Positions 18,761 to 23,433 of a stretch of DNA of 24,557 bases are shown here, piece by piece. This DNA comes from Actinomycetota bacterium (GTDB lineage Bacteria > Actinomycetota > Actinomycetes > UBA12327): contig DPWC01000189.1 of the NCBI GenBank assembly GCA_003529305.1, positions 1 to 24,557 on the forward strand. The letters are read 5' to 3'. Under the pieces are notes generated by a model. It saw nothing but the letters and a program-made list of their open reading frames with translations, had not been told where the DNA came from and did no database searches. The translations under genes were made by a program, and so were the position numbers. The stretch's first letter is position 1. Each line of letters starts with the position of its first letter.

Positions 18761-19711
18761 CTATCCCCTGAGGTTCTCACGGTGGCTCTCGTACCACTGG
18801 TAGGTCGAGGCCAGGCCCTCGTCGAGGGAGATGCGCGCAGACCATCCGGTCTCCTTGATCCGCGAGACATCGAGGAGTTTTCGCGGGGTGCCGTCGGGGC
18901 GTGAGGTGTCCCAGACGATCGAGCCGGTGAATCCAGTGACCGCGGCGATGTTCTTGGCCAACTCTTTGATCGTGACATCGACACCAGTGCCAACATTGAT
19001 GGCCGTGTCGTCGTTGTAGTGCCTCAGCAGGTGCACACAGGCCTCGGCAAGGTCGTCGACATGCAAGAACTCGCGCCTAGGGCTGCCGGTGCCCCAGACA
19101 ACGACCTCGGTGGCGCCGGAGCGCGCAGCCTCATCGAATCGGCGCAGTAATCCCGGCAACACATGGGAATGCTCGGGGTCAAAGTTGTCGCCGGGTCCAT
19201 ACAGGTTGGTGGGCATCGCACTAATCCATGGCAAGCCATATTCGCTGCGCACCGATTGCACCTGCACGATGCCGGCGATCTTGGCCAAGGCATACGCGCG
19301 GTTAGTGGGTTCAAGTGGGCCGGTCAGGAGGGCGTCCTCATTGATGGGTTGCGCAGCGAGTTTGGGGTAGATGCAACTACTCCCGAGAAAGAGGACTCGA
19401 GGAATTCGGTGCTTCAGTGCCGCATCAAGTACTGCGGTCTGGATGCGCAGGTTGTCACTGATGAACTCCACCGGGTGCTCGCTGTTGGCAGCAATGCCGC
19501 CGACTTTGGCAGCCGCCAGCACAACGGCATCCGGCTGGTGCCTCTGGATAAATGCATCCACCGCATCGTGATCGCGCAGGTCCAATTCACCCGAGCGCCG
19601 GCCGATGAGGTTGTCATAACCCGCGGCTGCTAGTGCCCGCCAGATGGCGCTGCCGACGAGTCCGCTGTGCCCGGCCACATAGATCCGGTGCTGCGGCTGT
19701 AACAAGTCCAT
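18761..19711 (-). CDS. fcl: GDP-L-fucose synthase (epimerase/reductase)
   Basis: [81 protein letters not shown]. Confidence 0.97.
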
Positions 19712-19735
19712 GGCATCAGCCTAGGCTGTGCGCTT
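19712..19735. promoter_or_regulatory. Bidirectional leaderless promoter; palindrome CAGCCTAGGCTG
   Basis: The 24-nt spacer holds a 12-bp palindrome (19717-19728) giving TAGGCT on both strands: N6 to the fcl ATG and N8 to the gmd GTG. Neither side has an SD. Confidence 0.7.
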
Positions 19736-20716
19736 GTGGCCCCCGTAGCGCTCATCACCGGAATCACTGGTCAAGACGGCTCCTATCTGGCAGAGCTGCT
19801 CTTGGGCAAGGGCTATGAGGTGCATGGATTGATTCGCCGCGCATCGACTTTCAATACTCAGAGGATTGATCACCTTTACACCGACCCGCACGAAAGCGGA
19901 CGCCTTCACCTGCACTACGCGGATCTAACCGATGGCTCTCGCCTGACCACTTTGTTGGCACGCATCGAACCCAATGAGGTGTATAACCTCGCCGCGCAGT
20001 CGCATGTGCGAGTGTCCTTTGACGAACCCGAATACACCGGCGATGTCACTGGCATTGGGGCTACTCGGCTGTTGGAAGCTCTACGAATCACCGGAGTTCC
20101 TGCGCGCTACTACCAAGCCTCAAGCAGCGAGATGTTTGGAGCCACTCCACCGCCGCAAAACGAATCGACGCCCTTCTATCCGAGATCGCCCTACGGTGCC
20201 GCCAAGCTCTATGCCTACTGGATGACGCGCAACTATCGCGAGGCCTATGGCCTCTTCGCGGTGAACGGGATCTTGTTCAACCATGAGTCACCGCGTCGTG
20301 GCGAAACTTTCGTCACCCGAAAGATCACGCGTGCTGTCGCCGCGATCAAGGCAGGTCGCCAGAGCGAGGTCTATCTGGGCAATCTGGAGGCGGTTCGCGA
20401 CTGGGGATATGCGCCCGAATATGTCGAGGCGATGTGGTTGATGCTTCAAGCTGATTCGCCTGATGACTTCGTGGTGGCGACTGGAACGGCGTACTCGGTG
20501 CGCGACTTTGTCCAATTCGCCTTTGAACATGCCGGACTCGATTGGCAGGACTTCGTCAAGTACGACGAGCGATATGAACGGCCTACTGAAGTCGATGCCT
20601 TGATCGGTGACCCTTCACACGCGGGCGAGGTTCTGGGCTGGCGGCCCACGGTGCTGACTCCCGAGCTTGCACGCATCATGGTGGACGCGGACACGGCGTT
20701 ACTTCTGGGCGACTAG
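19736..20716 (+). CDS. gmd: GDP-mannose 4,6-dehydratase
   Basis: [80 protein letters not shown]. Confidence 0.98.
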
Positions 20717-20728
20717 GCGGCTGTCATC

Positions 20729-21907
20729 GTGGCGGTGTCCGCGTCTCTTCGGCAGGCCGTTCGTTGGTTCTCCGCAATTCCGACGCCGATCGTGCTGGGC
20801 ATTGGTGCGGCGCTGTGTTCATCTCAGCGATTGGCGAACCCGGTTGGACGCGACACTGCACTGACGGCGGTGACTGTCTGGGGCCTGATCATCTTGGCGG
20901 CAGTGATCTATTCGGCAGTCTTTGCTGTTGTGCTACCGGTCCTTGCGAGGCAGTCTGATCGATTGGCACTTGTGGCCGTAGGTGTGATTGTCGTTGCGTT
21001 AGTGGTTGCGTTCATCGTGGTGTATCCGCGCTATGGGCTACCCACTGTTGGTGGCTTTGGTGATCGTGATGATGCGTTGACGATCATGTGGAAAGCGCTA
21101 CTTAGCGGCGACAACCCCTTCGACCAGAAGACTTACCTGGGAGATCAGGTATCGCCTTTGCTCGGTGGCGTCGTGCTCTACGCACCCTTTGTGGCTGTGA
21201 CAGGTTCAGCCGGTTGGGGCGCGCCTGTGCTGCTGGTTCTGGCGACCCTTGCCGCCTGGCGGCTGCTATCGCCTCGCGTGTTGCTGCTGAGCGGGTTCGT
21301 AATCGTCGTGAACATCGGCTTTCTGGAAGACTTCCTTCTGGGTGGCGATGCCTTCATCGTGCCTTTGCTACTGGCCGTTGCCATCGGGCTTCTCTGCGAC
21401 GCCCGATCGCCCCTGATCGTGGCAATCCTTGCTGTCGTGTTGGGGGCCTTAGCGGGCTCGGCGCGCGCCAATGTGGTGCCCGTCGCTGTTGCCGCAGGAC
21501 TCTTCGCTCTCCTGCAACGCCGCGCTACAACGAGACGCCTCGCGCTGCTGGTGATGACACTAGGAAGCCTGACGCTGGTGGGCATCTCCTGGGTGTGGGC
21601 TGGCGGTAGTTCGGCGTGGCCCTTCACGGGCGACCTGACGCCGGCGCTGCGCCACGCCATCTCTGCGCTGCTCGTCGTCGCACTAGTCGGAGCAGGAGTC
21701 CGCTGGCAACGATCAAGAACTTCAACGCCCTGTGTGGACTTGGCGAAGGGAACGGCGCTTCTGGGATTCTCAATCGTTCCGCTAGTCGTTGTGCCGGCTG
21801 CCCTCTTTCGACTCTGGCCCACCGTCGTCCTAGTTCTTCCTCTGCTCCTTCGCCGCTACGCTGACCAAGTCGGGTCGCGTGATCGCTTCGACTCGTTGGT
21901 GAACTGA
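20729..21907 (+). CDS. Polytopic membrane protein, putative GT-C glycosyltransferase (GT87/DUF2029-like motifs)
   Basis: 392 aa, about 10 hydrophobic segments. The first outer loop reads GDRDDAL...LLSGDNPF...LYAPF: an acidic motif followed by G.NP[F/Y]. Confidence 0.55.
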   Translation: MAVSASLRQAVRWFSAIPTPIVLGIGAALCSSQRLANPVGRDTALTAVTVWGLIILAAVIYSAVFAVVLPVLARQSDRLALVAVGVIVVALVVAFIVVYPRYGLPTVGGFGDRDDALTIMWKALLSGDNPFDQKTYLGDQVSPLLGGVVLYAPFVAVTGSAGWGAPVLLVLATLAAWRLLSPRVLLLSGFVIVVNIGFLEDFLLGGDAFIVPLLLAVAIGLLCDARSPLIVAILAVVLGALAGSARANVVPVAVAAGLFALLQRRATTRRLALLVMTLGSLTLVGISWVWAGGSSAWPFTGDLTPALRHAISALLVVALVGAGVRWQRSRTSTPCVDLAKGTALLGFSIVPLVVVPAALFRLWPTVVLVLPLLLRRYADQVGSRDRFDSLVN

Positions 21908-21927: not shown

Positions 21928-23433
21928 ATGGGTAAGCAGAGCCGCTCGAAGGCCACTGCTCAATCGCGTGCGTCGTCAATGTCGAAACAGGCCTCGGCTC
22001 GTTCAAACAAGGGCCGGCAATCTGCTGGTATGTCGCTGGCTCGTTGGTTGACGATGCCGTCAGCGGCTTTTGCGATGTTCGGAGTGCTGTTCGCGGTTTT
22101 CGCGGTTACGGCTGACTTCAGTGGTACGGAGCGGCCCAATGATGTGCACTGGTCGGTCATCGTTGCATGGAGTTTGGCCAAACTGCATAGTCTCGATCTA
22201 GAGAACTGGCAATTCACCTTACAAGGCCCGCGAACTTGGTTGTTCAATGTGGGCCCACTCAAATCAGGGTTCTGTGAAGCCGGTAATGCTGTTGTACTTC
22301 CAGGCTCGCATTGCCGATCGGATCGATTTCCGGGCTCGATTTTCCTGGCCTACCCTTTTTATCTTGTCTTTGGTCGCTCACAACTATCCATCGTCCCAGG
22401 CACTTTCTCTGCCGTAGTGGGTTCTGCGGCTGGTCTGGCATTCATGTATCGCTCTTTTATCAAGCTGGTTGCCCCAGCCGTGGCAGTTGGCGCAGTGGCT
22501 CTACTCGCTTTCACGACGGGTGTGTGGACTGTGTCTGCCAATCTGCCGTGGACACATGCGGCGGTACTTCTGGGACTGGGCTTCGCGACATGGTCTGTGT
22601 CGCGTGATCGTCCGTTTGGAGCCGGACTGGGATATGGCTTCGCGATTCTGAGTCGACCACAGGCAGCAGTGGTGCCGCTGGTTGTGGGCATTTGGGAATC
22701 AGCTCGCCGCCGTTCCCTTATTCCCGCCTTGAAGATTGGAATTGCTAGCGCCCTGGGAGTGGTGGCTTTACTTGTATATAACCGCCTTAATAGCGGCGAA
22801 TGGGCCCTGTTGACGGGGTCCTACGCCGGCAGAGGTGCAGCAGCCGTTTCACCAATCGTCGATCAGGAATCGTCCTACCTCGGACCATTGCGCCCCCTGT
22901 ATGACATATGGGGCACTTTTTTGAGCCCATCACGCGGCCTCTTCATTTTGTCCCCGTACTTGCTCCTAGTCATTCCCGGCCTGCGTGCGGGTTGGCGGGC
23001 AGCGCCCGATTGGGTTCGGGCGAGTGCGATAGGCGGCCTGTGCTATCTGATTTTGCAGCTATCCGGAAACCGATTCACCGGAGGTTTGGGGTACTTCGGT
23101 TATCGCGTGACCATGGAACCCCTGGTGCTTTGGTCTCCTTTGATGGCGTTGGCGTTCCAACACTGGACGGCGTTGGTCAAGTGGCGGCTCCAGGCTTTCA
23201 GTGTTCTGGCTATCGCTTCTTTGTGGTGGTTTTCTTGGGGCGCGATTTTCTACAAACTGCAACTAGGTAAAGAATTCGACGCTTGGACATATGACTTTGC
23301 AGCGCCTTGGCAGCAAGCTCAAATCGGTCAGTTGGCCATCTCACTGGCCATAGCGTTGGCGATTGCGGCGTCGGTTCGCTGGATCTGGCGGCAGGCAGGT
23401 GCAACTTCACCGCACGAGGTCGTGAGCAGGTGA
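21928..23433 (+). CDS. Polytopic membrane protein, putative GT-C (PMT/ArnT-like) glycosyltransferase
   Basis: 501 aa with a basic N-terminal tail. Motifs PNDV, RFPG..FLAYPFY, WTH, LSRPQ, SPSRGLFILSP and GYR, a pattern seen in uncharacterised GT-C-like proteins. Confidence 0.6.
   Translation: MGKQSRSKATAQSRASSMSKQASARSNKGRQSAGMSLARWLTMPSAAFAMFGVLFAVFAVTADFSGTERPNDVHWSVIVAWSLAKLHSLDLENWQFTLQGPRTWLFNVGPLKSGFCEAGNAVVLPGSHCRSDRFPGSIFLAYPFYLVFGRSQLSIVPGTFSAVVGSAAGLAFMYRSFIKLVAPAVAVGAVALLAFTTGVWTVSANLPWTHAAVLLGLGFATWSVSRDRPFGAGLGYGFAILSRPQAAVVPLVVGIWESARRRSLIPALKIGIASALGVVALLVYNRLNSGEWALLTGSYAGRGAAAVSPIVDQESSYLGPLRPLYDIWGTFLSPSRGLFILSPYLLLVIPGLRAGWRAAPDWVRASAIGGLCYLILQLSGNRFTGGLGYFGYRVTMEPLVLWSPLMALAFQHWTALVKWRLQAFSVLAIASLWWFSWGAIFYKLQLGKEFDAWTYDFAAPWQQAQIGQLAISLAIALAIAASVRWIWRQAGATSPHEVVSR

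Follow-up and report, generated by a model that had tools for sequence, protein, structure and literature searches.

Bidirectional promoters based on the symmetry of the -10 element were described by Warman, Forrest, Wade and Grainger (bioRxiv 10.1101/2020.01.31.928960; later Nat Microbiol 2021), who reported that this symmetry gives rise to divergent transcription start sites (TSSs) at preferred separations, 18 bp being the commonest, with others of 29, 23, 12, 10, and 7 bp. The 23-bp separation is also common in Escherichia coli (PMC12825309), and the 23-bp form, in which -12T and -11A are reciprocally co-located, predominates in Rhodobacter sphaeroides (PMC12976309). In regard to leaderless genes, Mycobacterium tuberculosis displays TANNNT 7–12 bp upstream of the TSS without a -35 element, and 26% of its genes with a primary TSS are leaderless (Cortes et al. 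2013, PMC3898074). Closely juxtaposed divergent promoters are common in this organism, including the divergent pair prpD/Rv1129c, both members of which are leaderless (PMC3898074). A literature search revealed no paper devoted to bidirectional leaderless promoters as such.

In this study, we analysed a stretch of 24,557 nt (the window) from a freshwater/aquatic metagenome-assembled genome (MAG) of 1.37 Mb (71% complete, 61% G+C), in which the genes for two GDP-fucose enzymes, fcl and gmd, lie head-to-head. Our main reading, to which we assign a probability of roughly 0.65, is that the 24 bp between them act as one compact two-way promoter, from which both messages would start at or beside their start codons. 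None of our conclusions draws on the unpublished genome G035.

The fcl/gmd pair and its spacer

Annotation of the locus led to the following features:

18761–19711, minus strand: fcl, GDP-L-fucose synthase, 316 aa, ATG start at 19711 (NCBIfam profile and sister-genus N-terminus)
19736–20716, plus strand: gmd, GDP-mannose 4,6-dehydratase, 326 aa, GTG start (TIGR01472 and sister-genus start)
19712–19735: intergenic spacer, 24 bp between the start codons, no Shine-Dalgarno (SD) sequence on either strand
19717–19728: perfect 12-bp palindrome CAGCCTAGGCTG, equal to its own reverse complement
19722–19727, plus strand: predicted gmd -10 hexamer TAGGCT, gap of 8 nt (19728–19735) to the GTG, predicted TSS 19734–19736
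19718–19723, minus strand: predicted fcl -10 hexamer TAGGCT, gap of 6 nt (19717–19712) to the ATG, predicted TSS 19711, the A of the ATG

Residues 7–312 of Fcl aligned to positions 2–306 of the NCBIfam GDP-L-fucose synthase profile NF047922 with 455 bits, a score under the family's curated cut-off of 500, and residues 4–320 of Gmd to positions 2–339 of TIGR01472 with 506 bits; both matches start only a few residues from the proposed N-termini. The fcl start appears as CAT at 19709–19711 of the plus strand, and the gmd GTG at 19736–19738 is the first in-frame start downstream of a stop at 19700. Since both N-termini match those of a sister genus (the counterparts read MDLLKPSDRIYVAGH in one case and VSKVALITGI in the other) and the sequence upstream of each start is unrelated between the two genera, the fcl and gmd starts were confirmed. 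The spacer itself was found identical in 10 contigs from separate ENA, JGI, and Logan assemblies and thus is not an assembly artefact. Downstream, gmd heads a co-directional run with three membrane-protein ORFs at 20729–21907, 21928–23433, and from 23430 to the end of the window, the first two of which (392 and 501 aa) revealed no NCBIfam or Pfam match at E ≤ 0.001.

The geometry of the spacer is established. As the first-pass annotation had described, a 24-bp head-to-head spacer carrying TAGGCT on each strand with a shared TA, gaps of 6 and 8 nt, and no SD can be read directly from the sequence. The two opposite-strand TANNNT hexamers overlap by this TA, giving AGCCTAGGCT at 19718–19727, which is the shared-TA layout of the 23-bp class. 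No GGAG-like motif or pentamer was found anywhere in the 24 bp, so that both genes show the SD absence of leaderless genes. In predicted folds, the first 9–15 nt of both predicted mRNAs were unpaired, which is compatible with leaderless translation but weak evidence for it.

GTAACA, located 17 bp upstream within fcl codons 3–4, was discarded as a gmd -35 element because its bases vary among close variants, and a scan with the sigma-70 consensus found no promoter, which is uninformative as the genome is without any -35 signal.

Leaderless -10 boxes in the host genome

A codon-usage model called 1277 coding-like ORFs in the genome, of which 1269 had enough upstream sequence for motif profiling. 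In 101 of the 1269 ORFs, the distance from the end of TANNNT to the longest start was exactly 6 nt, compared with about 2 ORFs at other offsets and 14, 5, and 9 at gaps of 7, 8, and 9 nt, while scrambled control motifs reached at most about 15 at any offset. This peak coexists with an SD-like signal, which peaks at 4–9 nt upstream of other genes. The 101 gap-6 genes start mainly with GTG (56) or ATG (43), and their commonest hexamers are TAGGGT (16), TAGCCT (14), and, in third place, TAGGCT (13). Their flanks favour C at -14, C at -13, and G at -6, and no conservation was detected around -35 in these 101 promoters, just as a -35 signal was undetectable in the genome. Together, the sharp peak at gap 6 and the consensus of hexamer and flanks indicate that the genome uses the actinobacterial leaderless architecture on a large scale. 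The premise that TANNNT leaderless geometry is common in actinobacteria thus held for the host genome, and the same geometry was mapped in M. tuberculosis (PMC3898074).

TAGGCT/CCTAGGCT is among the commonest leaderless -10 boxes of this genome, and of the 22 genomic sites of CCTAGGCT, most have ATG or GTG 5–9 nt downstream. With respect to spacing, CCTAGSST was found 15 times at gap 6, once at gap 8, and four times at gap 9, against a background of 0.03 per position. Three side observations concern these boxes. At the four gap-9 sites, the position 6 nt downstream reads ATC, ATC, CTC, or GAG, so that these genes may have 3-nt leaders or non-canonical starts. Over the whole genome, 65 of 352 TAGSST sites fall 5–9 nt upstream of a called start. 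Finally, CTAG occurs genome-wide at 0.30 of the expectation from base composition, yet the -10 boxes are mostly of the TAG type.

The sister genus, gene order, and parallel loci

The same fcl/gmd pair is present in the sister genus (five genomes and one metagenome contig), in the same gene context as in the window (Fur-ygfZ-fcl<>gmd-membrane), with a spacer of 144–146 bp. Each of these spacers carries exactly one plus-strand TANNNT, namely TAGGCT within CCTAGGCTG; a conserved GCAGACA-N18 precedes it, and the gmd GTG, equipped with a GGGAG SD, lies 35 nt downstream. Likewise, each carries exactly one minus-strand TANNNT, namely TAAGAT, 30 nt before the fcl ATG and accompanied by a GGAG SD. One hexamer per strand, each with a leader and an SD, points to two separate conventional promoters lying back-to-back in the sister genus. 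Most of these spacers (L002–L006, L070) also contain an inverted repeat with arms of 8 bp, CTTATGCC ... GGCATAAG, on either side of about 26 bp. This repeat, which has not been retained in the more diverged spacer of G003, overlaps with the predicted fcl -10 (TAAGAT) and could be an operator or a hairpin.

CCTAGGCTG is common to both genera, and the next two bases (TG) match as well, except at the G003 locus (L005). By this comparison, the plus-strand TAGGCT of the window is homologous to the conserved predicted gmd -10 of the sister genus. Short and long spacers were compared manually, anchored on CCTAGGCTGTG, as a MAFFT alignment misplaced the large gap. Relative to the sister genus, the window retains CCTAGGCTGTG but has lost about 93 bp towards fcl and another 27 bp towards gmd. 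In the sister genus, GCCTAGGCT is preceded by T or G, so that the minus strand shows TAGGCA or TAGGCC, neither of them a -10; the window has an A at this position (19718), resulting in a minus-strand TAGGCT exactly 6 nt from the fcl ATG.

Since the spacer measures 144–146 bp in the sister genus and is also long, about 82 to 234 bp, in other relatives with the divergent pair, we read the 24-bp form as derived and infer the following order of events. An ancestral spacer of about 145 bp would have held two separate promoters with two SD-bearing leaders; it would then have collapsed onto the old gmd -10, and a change from T or G to A at 19718 would have made this box readable on the fcl strand as well. 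With the longer ancestral state still visible in the sister genus, the steps can be read as the loss of about 120 bp plus one base change.

Within the genus, both the palindrome and the spacer length of 24 bp have been retained in two variants (96% Fcl identity), with a single change at 19715. Zero and one changes in 24 bp are no better than the divergence of about 5% in the flanking genes predicts for two variants, so that conservation of the spacer by itself is no sign of constraint. These close relatives came from exact-protein look-ups, as an Fcl search of metagenome contigs yielded only relatives of at most 62% identity. One close variant (96% Fcl identity) carries a family-2 glycosyltransferase gene between fcl and the ygfZ-like gene (L068, 1144–1914), which the window does not have.

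The survey of orientations and spacers that the first-pass annotation had proposed covered 80 loci with close Fcl relatives, mostly from Actinomycetota. The order gmd>fcl was found in 34 and the divergent arrangement in 24 of them, followed by fcl>gmd (5) and a convergent pair (1), while gmd was not within 1.6 kb in 16. The statement that gmd and fcl are usually co-directional needs to be toned down accordingly: gmd>fcl is the largest class, but only as a plurality. With 24 of 80 loci, the divergent arrangement is common in the phylum and unremarkable as an orientation.

Besides the fcl/gmd spacer, the genome has a second candidate for a shared-TA two-way leaderless promoter. On contig C25 (G000, about 2670–2694; locus L154, 1271–1295), a 23-bp spacer, GGGATC-AGGCTAGGGT-CGCCAGC, with gaps of 6 and 7 nt separates the head-to-head genes for a DAGK_cat-family (diacylglycerol-kinase-like) lipid kinase of 347 aa and a 126-aa ORF without a Pfam match. 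Elsewhere in the genome, divergent pairs with spacers of 33, 36, 50, and 63 bp carry two separate leaderless boxes, and the shared-TA form appears as the extreme of a series of leaderless divergent spacers. This layout is infrequent, with two to three cases in the genome compared with one to four in relaxed scans with control motifs; when the scan accepted any two long ORFs as neighbours, whether real genes or not, enrichment of AnnnTAnnnT was indistinguishable from control motifs.

A parallel for the same gene pair was identified in Acidothermus cellulolyticus 11B (L008, 2043–2070), which belongs to a different family and in which 22 bp (GCCCCA-AGGTTAGCCT-TGCCGC, gaps of 6 and 6 nt) separate the gmd GTG from the fcl ATG. 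This GTG is the only canonical in-frame gmd start upstream of the Rossmann motif. The GenBank proteins of 380 aa (Gmd) and 333 aa (Fcl) use exactly these starts, while RefSeq lists 331 and 319 aa, and the 331-aa Gmd model lacks a canonical in-frame start codon. The leaderless geometry therefore favours the long forms of Gmd and Fcl in A. cellulolyticus and bears on start-codon annotation. A further locus from an Acidothermaceae MAG (L109), with AGGCTAGCAT 8 nt before the fcl ATG, was not counted as its gmd start is ambiguous.

The short gmd/fcl spacer of Acidothermus is probably of independent origin. We would only tentatively extend this to the idea that collapse of a spacer onto one -10 box plus one base change is a recurrent route of genome streamlining, which possibly hit gmd/fcl independently in at least two actinobacterial lineages, the freshwater genus and Acidothermus. 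If true, such independent collapses would suggest selection for tightly coupled, SD-free expression of both GDP-fucose enzymes.

Predicted use of the two directions and comparison with known systems

We propose that the 24-bp spacer as a whole acts as one compact core promoter, bidirectional and of the housekeeping-sigma type, in which two opposite-strand TAGGCT hexamers share the T-12/A-11 base pairs (AGCC-TA-GGCT). From this geometry, we infer the transcript starts and the use of both directions. In one orientation, RNA polymerase would open the minus-strand hexamer and start at the A of the fcl ATG (19711), giving a leaderless fcl mRNA; in the other, it would open the plus-strand hexamer and start at 19734–19736, giving a gmd mRNA with a leader of 0–2 nt that would run on into the three downstream membrane-protein genes. 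Neither mRNA would have an SD, so that translation would begin from a 5'-terminal AUG or GUG, as is usual in Actinobacteria. A search of RNA runs found none containing the window DNA, and four metatranscriptomes searched at 80% likeness gave only fragments of less than 95% identity (most less than 90%) from conserved gmd and fcl parts of other organisms, none of them across the spacer. The minimal bidirectional leaderless promoter of the first-pass annotation gains support as a prediction from the genome-wide geometry, the common box, the homology to the sister genus, and the published layout, with a caveat on the gmd side. In regard to the annotation's expectation that the two directions probably compete for RNA polymerase, competition is possible but should not be expected by default, as steric competition at E. 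coli bidirectional promoters was found only where one direction is strongly activated (PMC12825309).

The caveat concerns spacing. While fcl has the modal leaderless spacing of 6 nt, a gap of 8 nt as in gmd was found for any TANNNT in only five of the 1269 ORFs, and gmd is the sole CCTAGSST case at this distance. The gap-8 class is thus rare but real in this genome, and because of its rarity the gmd side appears weaker: the gmd transcript would begin either at position 9 after the box or with a leader of 1–2 nt (0–2 nt overall), and of the two directions gmd may be the weaker one. On the gmd side, an out-of-frame TTG (19734) sits at the modal distance of 6 nt, and a transcript from there would not be a clean leaderless gmd mRNA. 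This TTG opens a four-codon ORF, TTG TGG CCC CCG TAG (19734–19748, with the TAG at 19746–19748), which overlaps the gmd start and could be a decoy or meaningless.

The alternative with the most in its favour is that the box is used in one direction: fcl would be leaderless, whereas most gmd transcription would come from a promoter within the fcl coding sequence, or gmd would be transcribed inefficiently with a leader of 1–2 nt, making the site in effect a one-way promoter beside a poorly served gene. Gaps of 6 nt outnumber those of 8 nt about 20-fold, and the TTG would capture transcripts that start at the modal position. We still regard this alternative as unlikely, as the plus-strand TAGGCT is the very hexamer that the sister genus conserves as its predicted gmd -10, and the spacer offers no SD to a gmd mRNA with a long leader. 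Moreover, the five cases of CCTAGSST at gaps 8–9 argue that short offsets are tolerated. In M. tuberculosis, 85% of the TSSs are purines, usually with a pyrimidine at -1 (PMC3898074), and the same preference would favour initiation at G19736, which is preceded by T, over T19734 or T19735.

A two-way promoter would also account for the palindrome, which the first-pass annotation had named as a possible regulator site. On each strand, it reads C-14 C-13 TAGGCT G-6, which is the extended -10 consensus of the genome (CC-TAGGCT-G). In terms of sequence, CAGCCTAGGCTG is two copies of this consensus overlapping by the central TA, and from two back-to-back consensus boxes that share a TA the 12-bp dyad follows necessarily, with no operator needed. 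That it mainly, or in addition, serves as operator for a dimeric regulator of both GDP-fucose genes might be suggested by a perfect 12-bp dyad located between two genes of one pathway and present only once in the 1.37-Mb genome (0.15 expected), but every position of the dyad is already explained by the promoter copies. In the sister genus, only GCCTAGGC plus TAGGCT on one strand is present and the dyad is not conserved, nor does it recur elsewhere in the genome or show conservation beyond promoter need. The C25 and Acidothermus spacers reveal no palindrome beyond A/TA/T, which argues for a promoter over an operator, and the ORF map of the window together with a profile search showed no regulator gene adjoining the pair. 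We therefore found no support for a regulator site and consider this alternative improbable.

A chance juxtaposition without promoter function is scarcely credible. Relaxed control-motif scans do produce a few matches between long ORFs, but TAGGCT, with 68 sites versus 577 expected, is depleted 8.5-fold over the genome and still stands at promoter distance from two verified starts; in addition, relatives have a conserved promoter to which the box is homologous.

Read as a two-way promoter, the spacer would be a natural example of a minimal control region: 24 bp serve two genes, and a palindromic core of 12 bp, with a few bases on either side, takes the place of two promoters along with both leaders and both ribosome-binding sites. 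The mechanism is already known from its two components, bidirectional promoters based on -10 symmetry and actinobacterial leaderless genes, and involves no new principle. The first-pass annotation had rightly stated that symmetric overlapping -10 elements can drive divergent transcription, as AnnnTAnnnT is an established, published promoter class (PMC12825309, PMC12976309). Like this 23-bp class, fcl/gmd displays AnnnTAnnnT with -12T/-11A co-located in a site between divergent genes, and its predicted TSSs are 23–25 bp apart. Unlike it, both transcripts are predicted to be leaderless, the promoter would be the entire intergenic region, and no -35 is detectable.

Compared to leaderless genes of M. 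tuberculosis, the locus shares a TANNNT near a (here predicted) TSS that coincides with ATG or GTG, and neither has a -35 or an SD. It differs in that the hexamers overlap by two bases instead of being merely juxtaposed, in the gmd gap of 8 rather than 6 nt, and in its host, an uncultured freshwater Actinomycetes MAG. Acidothermus cellulolyticus 11B (ABK52223/ABK52224) has the same genes head-to-head, with a short spacer and a shared TA, but its hexamers are TAACCT and TAGCCT, an extended palindrome is missing, and its Gmd has a 43-aa Ala/Pro-rich N-terminal extension. Finally, in contrast to the AT-rich AGTATACT-type boxes of CPR genomes, the fcl/gmd box is a GC-rich TAGGCT pair with a traceable long-spacer ancestor.
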